A stretch of 64,000 bases of DNA from Candidatus Caldatribacterium sp. SIUC1 (GCF_051549785.1 NZ_CP189974.1:34093-98092), one strand, 5' to 3'; shown: positions 3,143 to 36,196, counted from the first letter of the stretch. Numbers and translations: made by a program. Notes: generated by a model from the sequence alone, not told the origin.

Positions 3143-4141
3143 ATGGCGAAAATGTACTACGACCAGGACGCTAACCTCGACATCCTGAAGGGGAAGGTCA
3201 TCGCCATCATTGGTTTCGGGAGCCAGGGGAGTGCCCAGGCTCAGAATCTGCGGGACAGCGGCCTCAACGTCATCGTTGCAGAGCTCCCCGGAACCCCCGG
3301 TTTTGAGAAGGCGAAAAACGCAGGGTTTGAACCCGTGAGCGCTAAAGAGGCGGCAGAACAAGGCGACATCATCCAGATGCTTGCCCCTGATCAGTACCAG
3401 CCAGCGATTTACCGGGAATCCATTGCTCCTCACCTCACGAAAGGCAAGGCCCTCATGTTCTCCCACGGATTCAACATCCACTACCACCAGATTATCCCCC
3501 CTGCAGATGTCGATGTCATTATGGTGGCTCCGAAGGGTCCTGGGGACCTCGTGCGGCGGATGTACCTTGAGGGGAAAGGGGTACCTTCCCTTGTGGCCGT
3601 GTACCAGGACGCTACAGGCCAGGCCAAGGACATCGCCCTGGCCTACGCCAAGGGTATTGGCGCCACGAGGGCAGGGGTTCTTGAAACCACCTTTGCCGAA
3701 GAGACGGAAACCGACCTTTTCGGAGAGCAGGCCGTGCTCTGTGGTGGTCTCACCGCCCTCATCAAGGCCGGTTTTGAGACCCTGGTTGAGGCGGGTTACC
3801 AGCCGGAGGTGGCGTACTTTGAGTGCCTCCACGAGATGAAGCTCATCGTGGACCTTGTGTACGAGGGTGGCCTCATGCACATGCGCCAGGTCATCAGCGA
3901 CACTGCTGAATACGGTGACCTCACCCGGGGACCACGAATCATCAACGACCAGGTGAAGGCGGAGATGAAAAAGATTCTCGCCGAAATCCAGGATGGAACA
4001 TTTGCCCGGGAGTGGATTCTCGAGAACCAGGCGAACCGCCCGGTGTACCATGCGCTCCGCCAGAAGGACGCCGAGCACCTCATCGAAAAGGTCGGCAAGA
4101 CCTTAAGGAACATGATGCCCTGGCTGAAGAAGGAGGGGTGA
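3143..4141 (+). CDS. ilvC: ketol-acid reductoisomerase
   Basis: [40 protein letters not shown] is a classic IlvC N-terminus (Rossmann motif). RBS AAGGAGGAT. Product is 332 aa. Confidence 0.93.
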
Positions 4142-5688
4142 TGATGCGGCGTATCCGTGTGTTCGATACAACTTTAAGAGACGGCGAGCAATCTCCGGGG
4201 GTTGCCCTGAACGCCCAAGAGAAACTGGAGATTGCTCTGCAGCTTGCCCGCTTAAACGTCGACGTCATCGAAGCAGGCTTCCCCATTGCCTCTCCGGGAG
4301 ACGCCGAGGGGGTAAAACTCGTCGCAGACAACGTGAAGGGCCGGGCCGTTTGTGCCCTGGCCCGGGCCAAAGACAAAGACATTGACATCGCCTGGGAGTG
4401 CCTGAAAAACGCCGAGCACCCTATCATCCATACCTTCATTGCCACCTCAGACATTCACCTACGACACAAACTGCGCCTTTCCCGAGAAGAGGCCCTGGAG
4501 CAGGCAGTATGGGCAGTGAAAAGGGCGAAAAAGTACGTTGCCGATGTGGAGTTTTCTGCCGAAGACGCCACCCGCTCAGACTGGGAGTACCTGAGCCGGG
4601 TCTACGCAGCGGTCATTGAGGCAGGTGCCACCATCATCAATGTCCCCGATACGGTTGGATACATCACACCTTTTGAAATGCAGGAGCTCATTAAATACCT
4701 CTTAGAAAACACCAGGGGTATTGAAAAGGTCGTCCTGAGCGTGCACTGCCACAACGACCTTGGCCTTGCCACCGCCAATTCCCTTGCTGCTGTCCTTGCC
4801 GGCGCCGGACAGGTGGAGTGCACCATAAACGGCATTGGTGAGCGAGCGGGAAACGCCGCCTTGGAAGAGATTGCCATGAGCCTGTACGTCCGCCGGGACT
4901 TCTTCCAGGCCGAGACAAACCTCAACTTCCAGGAAATCTACCGCACGAGTCGCCTCGTGAGCCAGCGCACGGGAATGCTTGTCCAACCGAACAAGGCCAT
5001 TGTGGGTCAGAACGCCTTCGCCCACGAGTCTGGAATCCACCAGGACGGAGTACTCAAAGAAAAACTCACCTACGAAATCATGGATGCCAGACTCATCGGC
5101 CGGGAAGACCGGGTGCTGGTCCTTGGGAAACACTCGGGGCGCCACGCCTTCGCCAAAAAGATTGAGGAGCTCGGGTATAAACTCTCTGAAGAGGAGCTCA
5201 ACCAGGCATTCCAGCGCTTCAAGCAACTCGCTGACCAGAAGAAAGACATCACCGAGGACGACCTCAAGGCCATTGTCTCTGAAGAGGTGGCAAAACCCGA
5301 GGAAATCTACCACCTGGATTTCGTGCACGTGTGCTGTGGGAACAACATCCTGCCTACTGCCACCGTACGCCTGGTGAAGGATGGGAAAGAGGTGCTCGAG
5401 GGAGTTGCCACAGGAGTTGGTCCGGTGGATGCTGCCTACAAGGCCATCAGTAAGATGCTCGGTATTTCCTCAAACCTCGTGAATTACACCCTCCAGTCCA
5501 TCACCGGAGGGACCGAAGCACTGGGCGAGGTCATCGTGCGCATCCTCGATGGGGATGAAGAGTACATCGGACGGGGTTCGAGCCAGGACGTGGTGGTGGC
5601 AAGCGTCATAGCGTATCTTTCGGCCATCAACCGGATGGCCCAGAGAAAACGAAAACTCAACCCTCAAAAGGACTACGGGGAGAGCTGA
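4141..5688 (+). CDS. leuA: 2-isopropylmalate synthase
   Basis: ATG overlaps the ilvC stop (TGATGATG). N-terminus [20 protein letters not shown]; HxH and LeuA dimerisation regions present. About 515 aa. Confidence 0.9.
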
Positions 5689-28812: not shown

Positions 28813-31491
28813 TCACTTTTTCCCACAGCAGTATTTGTACTTGAGCCCACTCCCACAGGGGCAGGGGTCATTCCGGCCCACTTTACGCCGCGCCTCCTGG
28901 GGTTTTGGTACAGAGGCCGGTCGGGGCTTCTCCGAAGTCCTCTGGACAGAGGGCCTTCTTTCGGGAACCACCCGGACGTGGAAGAGGTACCGTAAGGCGT
29001 CTTCCCGGATAGCGGTGACCATGTTCTGGAACATCTCAAAGGCCTCGAGCTGGTACTCCACAAAGGGGTCCTTCTGGCCCACCGCCCGGAGTCCGATACC
29101 CTCCCGGAGGTGGTCCATGTTGTGGAGGTGGTCCTTCCAGTGGTAATCCACAACCCGCAGGAGGACATAGCGCTCAATATCGCGGAAGACCTCATCACCT
29201 ACCTCTTGGACCCGGTGCTCGTAGAGATGCACCAGATCCGTGTAGAGCCTCCCCTTAAGGTCCTTTGAGGTGAGCTTCAAACGTTCTTCCTCAGAGGGCT
29301 GGAATGCCACCCCAAAAAGGAGCCGCAGGCGCTGGTTCAACCCTTCAAGGTCCCATTCCTCCGGATACACCCGCTCATTGGCATAAGCCTCAACAAGGTC
29401 GTCGATGACCTTCTCCAGCATATCGTACACGAAGGGTCGGAGGTTCTCCTCAAAGAGCACCCGCCGCCTCTGGGCGTAGATGACCTCCCGCTGCTTGTTC
29501 ATAATGTCGTCGTACTGGAGAAGGGTCTTGCGAATGCTGAAGTGGTGTCCTTCGACCCTTTTTTGAGCCGCCTCCACAAGACGGGTGACCAGGGGATGCT
29601 CGATGGGAACTCCTTCCTCCATCCCAAAGCGAGCCATGACAGAAGACAAGCGTTCTGGAACGAAAAGCCGCAAAAGGTCATCCTCAAGGGAAAGGAAAAA
29701 CTGTGACGACCCCGGATCTCCCTGGCGTCCGGCACGGCCCCGAAGCTGATTGTCGATACGACGGCTCTCGTGGCGTTCCGTGCCAATGACGTGCAACCCT
29801 CCCAGGGTCTTCACTTCCTCGGCTTCCCTGTCGGTTTCCGCTTTGAAGCGCGCGTAGAGCTCACGGTAGACTTCTCTGGCCCGTTGCATTTCAGGGTCAT
29901 CGGCAGGAATGCCAAGACTCAGGCGGAGAATGACGTGCTCCGGAAAGCCCATCTCCCGCATCTTCCGCTTGGCAAGGAAATCCGGGTTGCCCCCAAGGAG
30001 GATATCTGTCCCCCTCCCGGCCATATTCGTCGAGATGGTGACCGCCCCCTTGCGGCCTGCCTGGGCGATGATTTCCGCCTCCCGTTCGTGGTGCTTGGCA
30101 TTCAACACCTCGTGGGGAATACCCCGCTTTTTCAGCATGTCGCTCAGACGTTCCGACTTCTCAATGGAGGTCGTCCCCACAAGGACTGGCCGTCCCAAAG
30201 CGTGCAGGCGTTCAATCTCCCGGACCACAGCCTCAAACTTCTCCCGCTCTGTACGGTAGATGACATCAGGAAGCGTCGTTCGGCGAAGGGGCTTATTCGT
30301 GGGAATCACTACCACCGGCATCCCATAGGTGTAGATGAACTCTTCTTCTTCCGTTTTTGCCGTTCCGGTCATGCCACAGATTTTCTCGTACATTCGGAAG
30401 TAATTCTGGTAGGTGATGGAGGCCAGGGTCTGGTTTTCACTCGCTACCTGCAACCCCTCTTTTGCCTCAATGGCCTGGTGGAGACCGTCGCTGTAACGCC
30501 TCCCGTACATGAGGCGACCGGTGAACTCGTCCACGATGATGACCTGACCGTCCTTCACTACGTAATCCACGTCCCTTTTGTACAGGTAATGCGCCCTGAG
30601 GGCCTGCCGCACAAGGTGCTCCAGGGTTCCTTTCCCCGTCTCCTCATAGAGATTTGCCACGTGAAGGAGTTTCTCAATTTTGGCGATGCCTTTCTCCGTC
30701 AGCCACACCGAGCGAGTTTTTTCCTCGAAGTCGAAATCCTCCTTGGGGATGAGCTTCCGGACCACCCGGTCGATCTTGTAGTAGATTTCGGTATTTTCCT
30801 CTGCCGGACCGGAGATGATGAGAGGCGTTCGGGCTTCATCAATGAGGATGGAGTCCACCTCGTCGATGATGGCGTAATGGAGTTCCCGCTGGACCACGTC
30901 TTCTTTTCGGAGGGCCATGTTGTCCCTGAGGTAGTCAAAGCCAAACTCGACGTTCGTGCCGTAGGTGATATCGCACCGGTACGCCTTCTTCCGCTCCTCA
31001 GGTGTTGACTCATGCTGAATAAGCCCAACAGAGAGCCCGAGGAACTCAAAAATCGGCCCCATCCAGTACCGGTCGCGCTTGGCAAGGTAGTCGTTCACCG
31101 TGACGATATGGACGCCCCGTCCGGTGAGGGCATTGAGGTAGGCAGGCATGGTGGCCACCAGAGTTTTTCCCTCTCCAGTCTGCATCTCGGCGATCTTCCC
31201 CTGGTGGAGCACAACCGCCCCCATGATCTGCACGTCAAAGGGACGCATACCGACGACCCTGCGAGCCACCTCCCGCACCACGGCAAAGGCCTCGATGAGA
31301 AGGTCATCGAGGGTCTCACCCCGGGCAAGGCGCTCTTTGAACTCCTCGGTTTTTCGGGAAAGCTCCTGATCCGAAAGCGCGCGTATCTTTTCCTCTAAAG
31401 CATTAACCGGCTCGACGAACTTCTTCTGGAGCTCCCGGATGATGCGCTCCTGGGCCTTCTTCGCCCATACCTCTTTCAGCAGGGCAAGCAT
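28813..31491 (-). CDS. secA: preprotein translocase ATPase SecA
   Basis: 892 aa. N-terminus [28 protein letters not shown]-like motor with Walker [11 protein letters not shown]-terminal zinc finger [16 protein letters not shown]. Confidence 0.95.
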
Positions 31492-31514
31492 ACGGTTTCC
31501 TCCTCAGGGATTGC

Positions 31515-31552
31515 CCAGAGGGCAGTTACCATTATAACACAGAGAGGTATCG
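31515..31552 (-). promoter_or_regulatory. candidate sigma70-type promoter for secA
   Basis: Minus-strand TTGGCG...TGTGTTATAAT (extended -10) lies about 25-60 nt upstream of the secA ATG. RBS GAGGAGGAAAC. Confidence 0.4.
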
Positions 31553-31580
31553 CCAAGGCGCAGAGAGAGTTCCAGAAGGA

Positions 31581-31604
31581 CTGGCGGGGGAGAGCCCCCG
31601 CCAG
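31581..31604 (-). terminator. GC-rich stem-loop immediately after encapsulin stop (possible terminator without U-tract)
   Basis: CTGGCGGGGG-AGAG-CCCCCGCCAG: 10-bp perfect stem, 3 nt downstream of the encapsulin stop codon. No U-run follows. Confidence 0.35.
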
Positions 31605-31606
31605 CC

Positions 31607-32395
31607 TCAGCGAAGGACACACACCGAGCGGGGTTCGGTAAGGAGAAGGGCCAGACTCTCCGAGACGGAGAAGAGATAACCTCCCGCTTCCGGACCGATG
31701 AACCCAACCTCAAGGTCCTGACCAAGGAGAATTCGGGCGTAGGCCGGGTTCACCGCAAGAAGCACCCCTCCTTCTTTCAAGTACGGCGCCTTGACCACCC
31801 GGTCACCCACAATGGTCCTTATGTGGTCAAGCTCAATCTGTGCCGTTTCGGGGTAACGGCGGAGGAGGAGATTGTACCGCCCTGGAGAAAGCGCCAGAGC
31901 AAAGGGCCCATGGAATCCCTCTCCATCAAGAAGAGAAACGGCCCGAATGAGGTCCTCAGCCGCTTTTCCCGGTTCATCCCAGGGAGAGAGGGAGCTCTCA
32001 AGAACCCCGGAAGCTGTGCAGAGACCCTTAGAGTCCCCAAACCCTTCGAAAATCAGCCGTTCCTCAAGATGAGCAATTTTCTTCACCGCTGCCACAAGCG
32101 GCGCAAGGTCCAGGGTCACACCGTTTCGTTCAAACTGGGCAATATCGAGTTTCCTGAGGGAGAACGTCTGCTCGAGCGCCACAAGTGGCTGTCCTCCGGC
32201 AACAAGAACCCCCTCTTCAAGGGGCTTCGTCCCGAAGGGGACAAGGGCAAATCCAAGACCGAAAGGGCCTTCAAGGGGGAGAATTCTCCGTCCCGCAAGC
32301 TCCGACTTTGCCACAGAAATGGCGGTTTTCTCAAGCAACTCCCAGAAGGCCTGCCCGAAAGGCGCATCCTCTCGACCAAGGTACGAACCGCTCAC
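31607..32395 (-). CDS. family 1 encapsulin nanocompartment shell protein (linocin M18-like, HK97 fold)
   Basis: 262 aa, a typical encapsulin length. ..LAGRRILPLEGPFGLGFALVP.. and C-terminal ..LGQDLEVGFIGPEAGGYLFSVSESLALLLTEP.. match family-1 encapsulin conserved blocks. GTG start in GTGA overlap with the EncFtn stop. RBS GGAGGAGGGAGGA. Confidence 0.8.
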   Translation of the reverse strand: MSGSYLGREDAPFGQAFWELLEKTAISVAKSELAGRRILPLEGPFGLGFALVPFGTKPLEEGVLVAGGQPLVALEQTFSLRKLDIAQFERNGVTLDLAPLVAAVKKIAHLEERLIFEGFGDSKGLCTASGVLESSLSPWDEPGKAAEDLIRAVSLLDGEGFHGPFALALSPGRYNLLLRRYPETAQIELDHIRTIVGDRVVKAPYLKEGGVLLAVNPAYARILLGQDLEVGFIGPEAGGYLFSVSESLALLLTEPRSVCVLR

Positions 32396-32739
32396 TGTCC
32401 TCCCTCCTCCCGCAGGGACCCCAGGGTCGGGGTACTCTGACCGAATGAGCGAGCAAGGTCATCGACTTCCTTTGCTCCCTGCGCCAGGAAATCCGCCTCG
32501 TCCCCTGTGAGAATCTCAAGGAGTCGCAGGAATTCCCCCGCATGGACCCGTTCCTCGTTGGCAATATCAATGAGAACCTTTTTGGCTAAAGGGTGGTCAG
32601 TGGCCTCGGCGTGGGCAAGGTACAGATGCACGGCTTCTTCCTCAGCCGCGAGATTCAGACGAATGGCACGGATGAGCTCCTCTTTCGTCATCTTCCGACC
32701 GGGCACCATACCACTGAAGGGGTTCACAAACTCCGGCAA
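32392..32739 (-). CDS. encapsulated ferritin-like protein (EncFtn) cargo with C-terminal encapsulin targeting peptide
   Basis: Ferritin-like four-helix motifs ..IRLNLAAEEEAVHLYLAHAEAT.. ..ANEERVHAGEFLRLLEIL.. C-terminal ..TPTLGSLREEGGQ resembles the xLGSL(K/R) targeting peptide. Most likely start is TTG 32739 (RBS AGGAGGTG 6 nt upstream). Alternative starts are GTG 32790 or ATG 32709. Confidence 0.75.
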   Translation of the reverse strand: MPEFVNPFSGMVPGRKMTKEELIRAIRLNLAAEEEAVHLYLAHAEATDHPLAKKVLIDIANEERVHAGEFLRLLEILTGDEADFLAQGAKEVDDLARSFGQSTPTLGSLREEGGQ

Positions 32740-32791
32740 CGGTACCACCTCCTGTGAGGTTTTTAGAGTACAACCATGGTCTGTGACCACT

Positions 32792-33220
32792 TTATTCCGG
32801 GTTCTGCGTGGTCTGCCCTTTCTGACACACGCTCTCTAAAGTGTGGGAGGCAAGGTACTCCCGAAAGCGATGGGCAAACTCTCCAAGAAGCCCGCCGAAA
32901 ATGCACTCCCCGAAAGGACACTCCGGCCCCTCAAGGAGGCAGATTCGCTCAGAAACCGGCCCTTCAATGGCCGCATAGACTTCAAGGAGGGTGATGCGCT
33001 CTGGAGGGCGGGAAAGCGTGAAACCCCCTCGAGGCCCACGGGTGGACATCACAAGTTGTGCCTTGCGCAGACGCTGGAAAACCTTCGCCAGGTGGTGAAA
33101 GGAGGCACCCGTCTTTTCGGCCATCTCTTTCACCGTGAGGGGAGCGCGGCTTTTACTCAAAAGCACCATGCTGTGCAGTGCTAAAGACACAGCTTCACTG
33201 AACTGAGGAAAAGGCGACAC
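32792..33220 (-). CDS. Rrf2-family transcriptional regulator (IscR/NsrR-like, three-Cys putative Fe-S ligands)
   Basis: 142 aa. wHTH region ..LTVKEMAEKTGASFHHLAKVFQRLRKAQLVMSTRGPRGGFTL.. Cys cluster CLLEGPECPFGEC. GTG start with RBS AAGGGGTG. Confidence 0.8.
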   Translation of the reverse strand: MSPFPQFSEAVSLALHSMVLLSKSRAPLTVKEMAEKTGASFHHLAKVFQRLRKAQLVMSTRGPRGGFTLSRPPERITLLEVYAAIEGPVSERICLLEGPECPFGECIFGGLLGEFAHRFREYLASHTLESVCQKGQTTQNPE

Positions 33221-33266
33221 AGCTTCACCCCTTCAAGAGGAGGATACTCAACGCTCCATTACTATA

Positions 33267-34457
33267 TCACAGAACTCGCAGGATGAAACACTTCAGGTAC
33301 CGGGATTCAGGATATCCCACAAGGACGGGATGGTCCTGAGCCTGCCCCCGCTGCTCAAGAATCTGCAGGCGTCTCCCGGCGTCCTGGCTCGCCTCCTTAA
33401 GCACCTCAAGGAAGAGGTCTTCGGAGAGATGGTACGAACAGGAACAGGTGACGAGGGTTCCCGAAGGGACGAGGAGTTTCATGGCCAGGAGATTGATGTC
33501 CTTGTACCCCCGGAGCGCCCCCTCGAGGGCCTCCTTCCCCTTGACGAAGGCAGGAGGATCGAGAATCACAAGGTCAAAGCGCTCGCCCTTTCTGAAGAGT
33601 TCCCGCAGGGCCTCAAAGACGTCGGCAACCTCAAACCGGACCCGATCCTCCAGTCGGTTTAGGCGAGCGTTCTCCCGGGCAAGGGCCACGGCGCTCTCGG
33701 AGATGTCAAGTCCCAGGACCTCTTTCGCCCCAAAAGCCGCCGCATGGATGGCAAACCCCCCGGTGTACGAGAAGCAATCAAGAACCCGTGCTCCCTGGAC
33801 ATAGCGGCGAAGGCTCAGGCGGTTCTCCCGCTGATCCAGGAAATACCCCGTCTTCTGGCCCCGGGCGACGTCCACGAAAAAGGCAAGGCCGTTCTCCTTG
33901 ATGACCACCTCCGGACTCCCACCCGGGAGAATCCACCCCGTGCGTTCCTCAAGGCCCTCTCTCTTGCGGACCTCTACATCGCTCCGTTCATAGATACCCT
34001 CAGGATGCAGGAGGACCTCAAGCGCCTCCACGACGTCTCCTCTTCTTTTTTCCATCCCAAGAGTGAGAAACTGCACCACAAGCAGAGAAGCAAACCGGTC
34101 CACAATGAGCCCGGGGAGGAAGTCTGCCTCGGCAAAAACCACGCGGAAGGCATTGGTTGTTGCTTCTCGAAAAAGCTTCAGACGAAGCTCAAGGGCCTGC
34201 TGCATCCGGCGAAGGAAAAAGTCCCGGTCGATGCGTTCCTCGGGGTTCCGGGTCAGCACCCGGACGGCGATGACCGAACTCGGGTTGTAATACCCCAGAG
34301 CAAGGGGTTTCCCCCGGTGATTCTCTAAGAGCACAACATCCCCGGGGTCTGCCGGACCCCGCAGAACCTCGATGTCCGTACGGTACACCCAGGGATGGCC
34401 CAGAAGTACCCGCTTTTCTTTTCCTTTCTTGAGACGGACCCGGGCGTACTCCGTCAC
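33267..34457 (-). CDS. class I SAM-dependent rRNA methyltransferase, RlmI-like (PUA + MTase)
   Basis: 396 aa. N-terminal PUA-like region (..LLGHPWVYRTDI..). SAM motif ..VLDCFSYTGGFAIHAA.. ..DLVILDPPAF. GTGA overlap with the hemerythrin stop. Confidence 0.8.
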   Translation of the reverse strand: MTEYARVRLKKGKEKRVLLGHPWVYRTDIEVLRGPADPGDVVLLENHRGKPLALGYYNPSSVIAVRVLTRNPEERIDRDFFLRRMQQALELRLKLFREATTNAFRVVFAEADFLPGLIVDRFASLLVVQFLTLGMEKRRGDVVEALEVLLHPEGIYERSDVEVRKREGLEERTGWILPGGSPEVVIKENGLAFFVDVARGQKTGYFLDQRENRLSLRRYVQGARVLDCFSYTGGFAIHAAAFGAKEVLGLDISESAVALARENARLNRLEDRVRFEVADVFEALRELFRKGERFDLVILDPPAFVKGKEALEGALRGYKDINLLAMKLLVPSGTLVTCSCSYHLSEDLFLEVLKEASQDAGRRLQILEQRGQAQDHPVLVGYPESRYLKCFILRVL

Positions 34458-34861
34458 GTACCCATCTTTGCCCGCAAAAATGCCCCGAGTTCCTTATCCA
34501 CTTTCAGGATGTGATTCACCCACCAATCCACCACTGTTTTATTCACCTGTGTAACCAGAGCGACACCAACGCTCTTTTCGGCTTCCTTCTGTAACCTCAG
34601 GAAAGTCTCGGTAAAACCCTCGTGGAGCCTCTTGTGAGCATCGAACCCTGGATACCTATACTGCACCATGAGCTTTTCCTCAGTGGCGAAGTGGGTTTTC
34701 ACATAGTCTCCAAGGAAAGCCAGGGTCTCCTGAACGGCGTCCTTCCCCCTTCCTTCCTGACAGGCTTCAAGGAGACGATTGGTCCGGGCAAAGAGCTCCT
34801 TATGCTGCTCATCAATCACCACCACACCCACCGAGAACGTATCCGACCACACAAGTGCCAC
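34454..34861 (-). CDS. bacteriohemerythrin
   Basis: About 135 aa. GTG start at 34861 gives (M)ALVWSDTFSVGVVVIDEQHKELF.., the canonical hemerythrin HHE N-terminus. His/Glu iron ligands present (H..E, H...H, ..H....D). Confidence 0.85.
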   Translation of the reverse strand: MALVWSDTFSVGVVVIDEQHKELFARTNRLLEACQEGRGKDAVQETLAFLGDYVKTHFATEEKLMVQYRYPGFDAHKRLHEGFTETFLRLQKEAEKSVGVALVTQVNKTVVDWWVNHILKVDKELGAFLRAKMGT

Positions 34862-34873
34862 AGAGCACACCCC

Positions 34874-36196
34874 CTATTCCGTGAACCGGATGGTCTCCTG
34901 ACGAAAGGCCGCATACTCTAAGACTGATTGCTCCTGAACCTCCCTGCAGGAAGCATGAATCTCGTCAAAGTGGTCCAGAAGCATCGCCACGACATCGGCA
35001 TCCAGACCTCCCAAATTCGCCATATCTCCGAGGATTTCCCGAATACGCTGGGGCCTCAGGGCTGGTCGGTAAGGGCGGTCTTCGGACAACGCCACGAAGA
35101 CATCAGCAACGGCCATGACCCTTGACTCAAAGAGGAGTTCTTCCCTTGTTCTTCCAAAAGGATACCCTTGACCATTGCACCGTTCGTGGTGCTCCGAAGC
35201 CCACAAAGCAACGTCCTTCAGGTTTTGAATCCAGGAAAGAGCCGCAAAAGTGTAGTAGGCGTGGGACTTCATAACGCGTATTTCCTTTTCGGTCAGCGGC
35301 CCAGGTTTTTCGAGAATCTCTACCGGTACGGCTATTTTCCCCAGGTCATGGAGGAGCCCTGCCGCAAAAATAAGCTCATGCTCTCCTCTTGGGAGTCCGG
35401 TGAGTTCTCCAAGCCTGCGAGCTGTATACGCCACCCCAGCAGAATGGGTAGCCGTGAAGGCGCTCCGGAAATCAACGAGATGGGCAATAACACGGCAGAA
35501 TCGGAGGAAATCCTCCACATTTAGACACAGTTTCCCCGGAGGAACGAGGCCATGCACGATGTGGCGAAGGCGGGGCGAAGCAAGGTCAAACCACACGTAA
35601 TCCTTGGAGAGGAGTTTTCGAAATGCTTCGAAAACCTCTGGATGGAAGAGACGGGGAACAAAAGACCGGAAGAAAGGCTCTCTCTCCCGGATCTCCCCCA
35701 AGGGATCTTCCTGAAAAGAACACACGATGCTGACCCGGTCAGCGAAATGGATGACGTGGCTTTCAAGGGGAGCGGTTCTGCCACGGCCCTCTTCCCAAGG
35801 AAGATGGTGGCAACGGATAACCTCTGCAAGCGATGCAAAAGGTCCAAAGTCCTTGAGCAACACGTAGCCCACAAAAGCGTGGTGATGAGGATTACGAAAC
35901 TCAAAGTGAAGAGCGTCAAGACGCTCCAGTAGAGAGAACGCTCCGATATCGTGCAGCAGGCCTCCAATGAGGAGATCCCTGAGGGACTGCTCCGGGAATC
36001 CCAGAACCTCTCCGAGGCGAAAGGCAAGGTAAGCAACCTTCAGGTGGTGCTCAAAAAGCCGTCGATTCACAAGGTCTACCACCTCAGCAAGGCAGAGCAC
36101 GAACCCAAGAAGGGGAATACCGTAACAAGAGTCCTCTTCGTTCTCCTGTGTAGGACAAATGACGTTCCAATCCTCCATGGCGACGACACTCCCCAA
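34874..36196 (-). CDS. tandem HD-domain protein, HD-GYP-type (putative c-di-GMP phosphodiesterase)
   Basis: 440 aa. Two HD motifs (..GGLLHDIGAFSL.. and ..AGLLHDLGKIAVP..) with a downstream ..HHE.. GYP-like region. Confidence 0.7.
   Translation of the reverse strand: MGSVVAMEDWNVICPTQENEEDSCYGIPLLGFVLCLAEVVDLVNRRLFEHHLKVAYLAFRLGEVLGFPEQSLRDLLIGGLLHDIGAFSLLERLDALHFEFRNPHHHAFVGYVLLKDFGPFASLAEVIRCHHLPWEEGRGRTAPLESHVIHFADRVSIVCSFQEDPLGEIREREPFFRSFVPRLFHPEVFEAFRKLLSKDYVWFDLASPRLRHIVHGLVPPGKLCLNVEDFLRFCRVIAHLVDFRSAFTATHSAGVAYTARRLGELTGLPRGEHELIFAAGLLHDLGKIAVPVEILEKPGPLTEKEIRVMKSHAYYTFAALSWIQNLKDVALWASEHHERCNGQGYPFGRTREELLFESRVMAVADVFVALSEDRPYRPALRPQRIREILGDMANLGGLDADVVAMLLDHFDEIHASCREVQEQSVLEYAAFRQETIRFTE

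Follow-up and report, generated by a model that had tools for sequence, protein, structure and literature searches.

Three co-directional genes lie on the minus strand of the window, the 64-kb stretch of DNA analysed here, whose host is the hot-spring bacterium Candidatus Caldatribacterium sp. SIUC1. They encode an Rrf2-family transcription factor (32792-33220), a ferritin-like cargo protein (32392-32739) and an encapsulin shell protein (31607-32395), and the open reading frames were found where an initial annotation of this DNA had placed them. The GTGA overlap between cargo and shell that had been described was likewise seen, the cargo stop codon TGA and the shell start codon GTG sharing positions 32392-32395 (4 nt). 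Further upstream on the same strand, the genes for a hemerythrin and for RlmI overlap by 4 nt, and a gap of 46 nt separates RlmI from Rrf2.

The encapsulin shell and its ferritin-like cargo

The shell protein (262 aa, GTG start) was assigned to family 1 of the encapsulins by profile searches and by its predicted fold. Both profiles consulted were passed above their cutoffs, as the family-1 claim of the initial annotation would have it: NCBIfam NF041155 (encap_f1) matched over the full length with 199.6 bits (cutoff 100, E 5.8e-59) and Pfam PF04454 (Linocin_M18) with 214.4 bits (cutoff 24.3, E 2.1e-63), and 37 solved encapsulins matched at E <= 1e-5. An exact-sequence search with the shell returned no recorded entry. 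Structure prediction pointed to the encapsulin/HK97 fold: an AF2 model (pLDDT 92, pTM 0.87), when searched against the PDB with Foldseek, returned encapsulin shells as all of its top 50 matches, the best being M. xanthus EncA (E = 2e-27, TM 0.85). The shell gene is moreover overlapped by a cargo gene whose product ends in a conserved C-terminal PTLGSL peptide.

The open reading frame of the cargo extends from 32392 to 32790, and its true start is the TTG at 32739, giving a protein of 115 aa. This start, which the initial annotation had also chosen, agrees with a ribosome-binding site GGAGG at 32748-32752 (8 nt ahead of the TTG), with the alignment of the protein to position 1-2 of the NCBIfam profile and with the N-termini of orthologues ('MPEFVNPFSG'). 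The cargo passes the NCBIfam model NF058679 (EncB_fam; 106.4 bits, cutoff 90, E 8.5e-31) and matches EncC (7s8t, 5.7e-16) and the P. furiosus EncFtn (5n5e, 4.9e-12) in the PDB; it does not pass the narrower EncFtn profiles Pfam PF22277 (EncFtn-like; 16.1 bits, cutoff 27) and TIGR04535 (80.1 bits, cutoff 125), and the subfamily profile reaches EncFtn of the R. rubrum/H. ochraceum type (5n5f, 6suw) only at E = 0.17-0.33. By its sequence, then, the cargo is placed in the EncC/P. furiosus-like branch of the EncFtn superfamily, with only marginal resemblance to the R. rubrum archetype. Its ferroxidase residues are E33, Y40, E63 and H66, the last two inside D58-x3-E62-E63-x2-H66, and their columns, lined up with the solved EncC and P. 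furiosus EncFtn, are invariant in the subfamily alignment; residue roles are taken from those described for the equivalents Glu32, Tyr39, Glu62 and His65 (ExxH motif; PMC11202242). What had been called an EncFtn cargo is a ferritin-like protein of EncFtn type, with the E/ExxH ligands in place and the EncB_fam model passed, and the EncFtn label in its narrow sense falls away.

The cargo ends in ...TPTLGSLREEGGQ, and we regard the region P104-T-L-G-S-L109-REEGGQ (32395-32430, minus strand) as a C-terminal targeting peptide. P104, T105, G107 and L109 do not vary between phyla and follow a variable linker, and the peptide co-varies with the presence of a shell gene: among 71 related loci, TLGSL is carried by 51/53 cargo genes that adjoin a shell gene, compared to 3/18 of those that do not (Fisher p = 1e-10). 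This pattern bears out the earlier suggestion that the cargo C-terminus serves in targeting. We discounted the hemerythrin encoded upstream as a possible second cargo, since it has no tail resembling a targeting peptide; only the Flp cargo carries such a tail in the window. Taken together, cargo and shell form with near certainty a standard Flp/EncFtn-type family-1 encapsulin module, and the iron-mineralising pair itself is an ordinary two-gene nanocompartment of known type.

Probable boundaries of the transcription unit

The spacer of 52 nt between Rrf2 and the cargo (32740-32791, minus strand) contains the ribosome-binding site of the cargo, and a terminator scan of this spacer gave no minus-strand terminator, the only hit being a 5-bp palindrome on the plus strand. 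As the gap is free of a terminator, Rrf2, cargo and shell most likely belong to one transcript, which would run from an extended -10 element at the RlmI stop codon to a hairpin behind the shell gene. The 5-3-5 palindrome TGGTCACAGACCA in the spacer was tried as an operator and discarded: its occurrence is within chance expectation and it is conserved only in the closest relatives.

The extended -10 element (TGATATAGT, 33261-33269, minus strand) overlaps the RlmI stop codon, and seven Caldatribacteriaceae loci all carry its pattern TGATATA[AG]T, whereas the sequence that follows it diverges. We rely on this conservation because a strict sigma-70 consensus scan of 31300-33500 found no promoter, that is, no full -35/-10 pair; in the sister loci, promoter and terminator matches were no commoner than in shuffles. 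The element probably starts the Rrf2 transcription unit. At the other end lies the GC-rich hairpin that the initial annotation had seen as closing the unit (31581-31604, minus strand), CTGGCGGGGG-CTCT-CCCCCGCCAG, with perfect 10-bp arms (31581-31590 and 31595-31604), a 4-nt loop, an MFE of -29.5 kcal/mol and z = -3.67 compared to shuffles. A hairpin is kept at this position in the sister loci L001, L006 and L107; a compensatory pair change is seen, as is a clear T-run in L107. The hairpin of the window is probably a transcription terminator with a weak U-tract, and it was missed by the strict terminator scan because of this poor T-tract. An inverted-repeat search with a seed of 6 returned the terminal hairpin as its sole match; none of the regulatory regions gave a repeat that resembled an operator.

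The Rrf2 regulator and its possible link to the compartment

The regulator (142 aa) combines a winged-HTH with a loop C94-x6-C101-x4-C106. It passes Pfam PF02082 (Rrf2; 96.6 bits, cutoff 30, E 1.7e-27) and TIGR00738 (95.4 bits, cutoff 73.3), is matched in NCBIfam at the superfamily level only, and is 100% identical to the protein named Rrf2 of Ca. Caldatribacterium sp. SIUC1. Every finer model failed: IscR (61.9 bits, cutoff 207.55), NsrR (31.7, cutoff 182), RirA (35.7, cutoff 193), CymR (48, cutoff 195), HypR (21.9, cutoff 180) and the SUF regulator (50, cutoff 110.65). On the equivalog scores we dropped an identity as IscR or NsrR, so that of the 'IscR/NsrR-like' regulator proposed earlier there remain the Rrf2 family and the three conserved cysteines. 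All 20 homologues compared, the most distant at 39% identity, keep C94, C101 and C106 as well as E9 and H16; a fourth cysteine, C132, is not conserved. In alignments, C94 falls on position 92 of E. coli IscR and on C90 of RsrR, the closest solved relative (6hsd/6y45), and H16 on RsrR His12. The genes that adjoin relatives of 44-58% identity encode the hybrid-cluster protein Hcp (4 contexts), a ferredoxin-like protein (1) and a truncated globin (1), neighbours that argue for sensing of NO or oxidants rather than of iron. We consider that the protein probably senses through an Fe-S cluster and represents a subfamily that is associated with Hcp and as yet uncharacterised, and its context points to NO or oxidants, not iron, as the signal.

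A possible, weak operator for Rrf2 lies at 33235-33248 (minus strand), where a degenerate palindrome AGTA-TCCTCC-TCTT (4/8) looks like the remnant of a GGTA-N6-TACC site that sister lineages carry ahead of Rrf2 at the equivalent position (8/8 in L025, 7/8 in L006, 6/8 in L003). The same palindrome is present at 8/8 in three of four promoters of Hcp-linked relatives, and at 6/8 in L017, where it overlaps the -10. The 64-kb window holds no exact GGTA-N6-TACC site, and a GGTA/TACC-type site ahead of the cargo is absent in every lineage.

We favour, with a probability of about 0.45, a single explanation that joins the compartment module, a transcript headed by Rrf2 and NsrR-like sensing of NO or oxidants. 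The shell would self-assemble into an HK97-fold icosahedral cage, and the two-helix cargo, held within the cage by the P-T-L-G-S-L peptide at its C-terminus, would form di-iron ferroxidase centres that oxidise Fe2+ by means of O2 or H2O2, the iron then being mineralised within the shell; in a strict anaerobe, the main role of such a compartment would be protection against oxidants. Among 50 upstream neighbours of the cargo subfamily in other lineages, we counted desulfoferrodoxin (6), SOD (4), rubrerythrin (3) and OsmC (2), an enrichment for oxidant defence with no recurrent regulator, which speaks in favour of this explanation. Rrf2 probably holds an Fe-S cluster on C94, C101 and C106. Following NsrR-like logic, holo-Rrf2 would repress near its own promoter and would be released when NO or oxidants damage the cluster, and synthesis of the compartment would then go up when Fe-S clusters are destroyed and free iron appears. 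We hold more tentatively an evolutionary version, in which the Caldatribacteriaceae recruited an Fe-S Rrf2 sensor, whose relatives elsewhere adjoin NO/O2-detoxification genes (Hcp, ferredoxin-like, globin), to head their encapsulated-ferritin operon, damage to its cluster by NO or oxidants directly switching on synthesis of the compartment.

It is also quite possible that Rrf2 is a mere neighbour, passed on by vertical descent in its place between RlmI and the two encapsulin genes, autoregulated or acting on a remote target (e.g. an hcp-type gene elsewhere), with the compartment expressed independently. The distribution of the gene arrangement speaks for this. Adjacency of Rrf2 was seen only in Caldatribacteriaceae, where the trio is retained down to 66-69% identity. 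The housekeeping genes that flank it, RlmI and SecA, are just as well conserved there, so that the adjacency may be mere synteny. Of the 55 informative loci that carry this cargo subfamily outside the family, none (0/55) had an Rrf2 neighbour, even when matches at E < 1 were admitted, and Rrf2 is also missing from three further shell contexts; a viral-contig scan yielded one distant locus only. In sister lineages the spacers between Rrf2 and cargo measure 105-325 nt, and a promoter-like block conserved in the sister clade, TTCTCA-17-TACAAT, stands directly ahead of the cargo, where the palindrome is absent; Rfam found no RNA family in these long spacers. The relatives of Rrf2, finally, are tied to Hcp and not to encapsulins. 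Against independent expression stand the same-strand gap of only 52 nt, whose lack of a terminator favours read-through, the habit of Rrf2 regulators of being the first gene of the operon that they control (in the Hcp-linked relatives the gap is 5-48 nt), and the absence from the 64-kb window of an Hcp or ferredoxin-like partner gene. The initial annotation had seen a dedicated regulator inside the encapsulin unit; in view of its restriction to one family and of the synteny of RlmI and SecA, we regard Rrf2 instead as a lineage-specific neighbour that may plausibly control the compartment.

The same annotation had tied the compartment to iron or oxidative status. Read as a link to iron, this would make Rrf2 a sensor similar to IscR or RirA that responds to sufficiency of iron or Fe-S and adjusts storage to supply. 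Three invariant cysteines in the canonical loop, the alignment of C94 with IscR and RsrR and the iron storage encoded downstream agree with such a sensor, but we consider it unlikely: the IscR, RirA and SUF regulator models fail by wide margins, the relatives accompany genes for handling NO and O2 and not genes for iron or Fe-S assembly, and a holo-repressor would stop storage just when iron abounds, a logic that runs the wrong way round unless the protein is an activator. That seven co-directional genes (among them those for the HD-GYP-like protein, hemerythrin, RlmI, Rrf2, cargo and shell) form one long unit, in which transcription of the encapsulin starts far upstream and the position of Rrf2 is not special, fits the common strand and the short gaps or overlaps but is very improbable, because in the sister clade divergent genes precede RlmI, yet the RlmI-Rrf2-cargo-shell block persists, and because the -10 after the RlmI stop codon is conserved.

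Encapsulated ferritins are structurally well characterised, and hardly anything is known of how cells control when the compartment is built; the reviews consulted name no dedicated regulator. If Rrf2 does control the module, it would provide a simple link from Fe-S cluster damage to compartmentalised iron sequestration in a strict anaerobe, and if the sensor was indeed recruited, the encapsulin system described here would be the first to encode a dedicated redox sensor in its operon. Otherwise, the Atribacterota join the phyla with a standard Flp-type encapsulin. The shell and cargo are in addition a thermophilic pair of possible use in nanocompartment engineering.

Comparison with known systems

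The winged-HTH of the regulator is homologous to those of RsrR, NsrR and IscR (6hsd, 5n07, 4hf0; E 4e-13 to 4e-7). Known Fe-S Rrf2 regulators space their cysteines as C-x5-C-x5-C, whereas the protein studied here has C-x6-C-x4-C; the position of RsrR Glu8 is occupied by Ser, and the invariant Glu9 lies elsewhere. Akin to NsrR, its subfamily adjoins NO-detoxification genes such as hcp (PMC1274295).

The encapsulin of Thermotoga maritima and its ferritin-like cargo (3dkt, 7kq5, 7mu1) likewise come from an anaerobic thermophile and are encoded in a two-gene operon, cargo first and shell second. The two shells have nearly the same length (query 5-261 on chain 3-263), which is only a hint that the shell studied here assembles with T=1 like that of T. 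maritima, and share ~24% identity in the structural alignment. A Thermotogota metagenome locus carries a cargo of the same subfamily (73% identity), with no Rrf2 gene adjoining it.

For both proteins the best solved match lies in the M. xanthus system, which comprises the shell EncA and the cargo EncB, EncC and EncD (4pt2, 7s20, 7s8t, 7s5c): EncA for the shell (2.5e-29) and EncC for the cargo (5.7e-16). In both systems a ferritin-like cargo bears a GSL-type C-terminal peptide. Along the aligned stretch (query 4-261 compared to chain 3-278), EncA has ~18 residues more. In M. xanthus, some of the cargo genes lie apart from the shell gene, in contrast to the single cargo described here, which is translationally coupled to its shell. 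The M. xanthus encapsulin functions in iron mineralisation and in protection from oxidative stress (PMC8346489).

The Flp-encapsulin fusion of P. furiosus (2e0z, 5n5e) contains a homologous cargo domain (4.9e-12) with the same D-x3-E-E-x2-H motif, a metal motif described for archaeal fusion FLPs (PMC11202242). There, cargo and shell are joined covalently, whereas in Ca. Caldatribacterium sp. SIUC1 they are separate genes with a 4-nt overlap, and the cargo would be loaded by means of its targeting peptide.

Shell, cargo and the order of the genes

All the elements that the initial annotation had listed were found in the window, on the minus strand, in the order Rrf2 gene (32792-33220), ferritin-like cargo gene (32392-32739), family-1 encapsulin shell gene (31607-32395) and GC hairpin (31581-31604), between the housekeeping genes for an RlmI-type rRNA methyltransferase (33267-34457) and SecA (28813-31491). 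The assignment of the 262-residue shell to family 1 was borne out by profile searches (Pfam Linocin_M18, 2.1e-63; NCBIfam family-1 shell equivalog, 199.6 bits, cutoff 100), and its sequence matched 37 solved encapsulins. An AlphaFold2 model built from 39 homologues (pLDDT 92) retrieved encapsulin shells only among the top 50 Foldseek matches in the PDB (best TM 0.85). The shell has the same length as the T. maritima T=1 protein, assembly size not being readable from sequence; M. xanthus EncA exceeds it by ∼18 residues across the aligned span. Copies 94-95% identical are present in Ca. Caldatribacterium genomes.

For the cargo (115 residues), the TTG start at 32739 proposed earlier is preferred over the mechanical ORF extending to a GTG at 32790, because GGAGG lies 8 nt upstream, position 1-2 of the NCBIfam profile falls there and orthologues start at this point with MPEFVNPFSG. 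The cargo stop is shared with the shell start in the GTGA overlap, as described. The label EncFtn held in part: the cargo passes NCBIfam EncB_fam (106.4 bits vs 90), but stays under threshold for TIGR04535 and Pfam EncFtn-like, the sole Pfam profile passed being Rubrerythrin. Among solved structures it is related to M. xanthus EncC (5.7e-16), P. furiosus EncFtn (4.9e-12) and EncB (1e-4), and the archetypal proteins of H. ochraceum and R. rubrum were reached at E = 0.17-0.33 only, even with a cargo-subfamily profile. Profile scores and matches to solved relatives together place the cargo, by sequence, in the EncC/P. furiosus-like branch, as a protein of the Flp-with-targeting-peptide type. Residues E33, Y40, E63 and H66 (numbered from the TTG) are the counterparts of the EncFtn ferroxidase residues Glu32, Tyr39, Glu62 and His65 (PMC11202242) and are unchanged in 7/7 cargo orthologues from four phyla. 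That cargo and shell together make an iron-mineralising encapsulin is, in our view, almost certain (probability about 0.95).

In the closing hairpin, which had been proposed, perfectly paired 10-bp arms enclose a 4-nt loop (MFE -29.5 kcal/mol, z = -3.67), and sister lineages carry a hairpin in the same position; in the Caldatribacteriaceae locus L107 it shows a compensatory change (GGCGGGG/CCCCGCC to GGTGGGG/CCCCACC) and a clear T-run. Just past it, ∼40 nt before SecA begins, lies a perfect extended -10 (TGTTATAAT; 31531-31539, minus strand), a probable sign that SecA is a transcription unit of its own. At the other end of the locus (34454-36196, minus strand), 3 nt separate the gene for an HD-GYP-type HD_5/HD protein (34874-36196) from the hemerythrin gene behind it (34454-34870), which overlaps the RlmI gene by 4 nt. 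It is odd to find an O2/NO-binding protein coupled to a housekeeping methyltransferase; the pairing is kept in the sister locus L003 and not in the L006 clade.

Targeting peptide and cargo relatives

In the cargo C-terminus, P104, T105, G107 and L109 are invariant and preceded by a variable linker. Of 80 metagenome loci of the cargo subfamily, 71 could be used, their cargo gene being complete and the DNA behind it long enough; in these, the final 15 residues contain the core T-[LIVM]-G-[SP]-[LM] in 51 of the 53 cargo genes with a shell gene next downstream vs 3 of the 18 without one (Fisher p = 1e-10, the loci not all being independent). Both motif-less genes beside a shell (L040, L095) adjoin truncated shell fragments. 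The comparative evidence that the tail serves as a shell-loading signal, as first predicted, is strong.

Fifteen shell-less loci (L038, L049, L059, L062, L066, L072, L073, L075, L077, L078, L083, L088, L092, L096 and L102) encode peptide-less homologues that share 76-82% identity with cargo residues 1 to ∼100. In each, at least 900 nt of downstream sequence is free of a shell gene, and by sequence the products are short ferritin-like members of the cargo subfamily that stand alone. In L079, L081 and L084, cargo-like genes carry the variant tail FTVGPMKG and no shell gene lies within ∼1 kb downstream; the system is either decaying or has its shell gene elsewhere. L031 (215-853) and L032 (1344-1934) have, ahead of the main cargo, another ferritin-like ORF with a weaker match (cargo HMM E ∼1e-9) and are possibly two-cargo operons. 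A 331-aa open frame in L103 (3971-4963; IMG/VR contig IMGVR_UViG_3300035698_035315, 71.7 kb, filed as viral), whose N-terminal domain shares 53% identity with the cargo, may be a Flp-shell fusion of the archaeal type that was wrongly classed as virus.

The Rrf2 protein and its neighbours

Profile search identified the 142-residue regulator as a bona fide Rrf2 protein; the IscR/NsrR-like identity given to it did not hold at equivalog level, every named equivalog (IscR, NsrR, RirA, CymR, HypR, SUF regulator) failing, and among solved structures it comes closest to the [2Fe-2S] redox sensor RsrR. The three cysteines noted earlier (C94, C101, C106) are invariant across 20 homologues with identity down to 39%, as are H16 and E9. 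The aligned counterparts of C94 are IscR position 92 and RsrR C90, and that of H16 is RsrR His12. Because of this Cys/His/Glu invariance and the alignment to IscR and RsrR, binding of an Fe-S cluster is likely.

Of the claim that this is a dedicated encapsulin regulator, the position directly upstream stands, but the adjacency is confined to Caldatribacteriaceae. There, every locus examined keeps Rrf2-cargo-shell, at identities as low as 66-69%; the upstream RlmI and downstream SecA genes are kept too, and the adjacency is therefore indistinguishable from inherited synteny. An Rrf2-subfamily HMM found the gene in only 3 of the 80 cargo-subfamily loci, all Caldatribacterium-like, and, of the 77 others, in none of the 55 with at least 700 nt upstream, even at E < 1. 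One other Atribacterota, one Anaerolineae and one Thermotogota genome have plain cargo-shell pairs with no Rrf2. Across 50 other lineages (loci within L026-L102), no recurrent transcription factor lies just upstream of the cargo; oxidant-defence genes in this position were desulfoferrodoxin (6), Fe/Mn SOD (4), rubrerythrin (3), OsmC (2) and ferritin (1). This comparison argues against the generality of a dedicated regulator and is neutral on function.

Rrf2 copies fall into two groups with a clear break in identity between them: those at least 68% identical are encapsulin-linked, and those at most 58% identical lie beside other genes: Hcp/Prismane (L009, L010-13, L017/18, L104), ferredoxin-like (L016, L017) or truncated globin (L105/106). 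In anaerobes, NO-responsive regulators classically act on Hcp and associated ferredoxin-like proteins (PMC1274295), and in some of these organisms this uncharacterised Rrf2 subfamily appears to stand in for HcpR/NsrR.

Promoters, operators and the case for control

A GGTA-N6-TACC palindrome covers the -10 boxes of the Hcp-linked relatives, upstream of the Rrf2 genes in L009 (∼4951-4974), L010 (∼4957-4980), L015 (∼3923-3950) and L017 (∼3958-3981), matching 8/8 in three of the four promoters, and is a candidate operator of the subfamily. The L009 promoter contains a perfect 10-4-10 repeat, ATTTAGGTAT-CATA-ATACCTAAAT. Between the Rrf2 -10 and RBS, the sister loci L025, L006 and L003 match at 8/8, 7/8 and 6/8; the homologous position in the window and its closest relatives reads AGTA-TCCTCC-TCTT (4/8), and the whole 64-kb window holds no exact site. 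The operator evidence is thus suggestive for sister lineages and weak for the SIUC1 genome.

Directly past the RlmI stop codon, an extended -10 (TGATATA[AG]T) is invariant across Caldatribacteriaceae while the sequence beyond diverges, which suggests that Rrf2 has its own promoter. The Rrf2-cargo gap in the window (52 nt, no minus-strand terminator found) favours co-transcription, and we regard it as fairly probable that Rrf2 is co-transcribed with cargo and shell in SIUC1. In L003 the gap is 105 nt, with a weak hairpin and T-run; in the L006/L025/L107 clade it is ∼320 nt and conserved in the last ∼65 nt only, where TTCTCA-17-TACAAT (L006 5664-5692, with aligned blocks in L025, L107 and L108) precedes the cargo RBS with no palindrome, suggesting a separate cargo-shell promoter. 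With gaps that differ in this way, operon architecture is not conserved across the family.

Real control of compartment expression by Rrf2 stays a tentative proposal, somewhat short of an even chance, and the main rival, that the regulator is a mere neighbour of the encapsulin genes, has a comparable standing. Were Rrf2 control real, the signal would more probably be NO or oxidant damage to an Fe-S cluster, with NsrR-like derepression, than iron level.

Our literature search found no paper naming both 'encapsulin' and 'Atribacter', and 'encapsulin' and 'Rrf2' together in one only, as separate topics. The main text of an encapsulin paper with supplementary neighbour-Pfam lists mentions neither Atribacteria nor Rrf2, and PF02082 occurs once in its supplement, among unprocessed neighbour Pfams. 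The adjacency to Rrf2, specific to this lineage, is a previously undescribed setting, uncertain in meaning, for an encapsulin system that is itself of a known kind.
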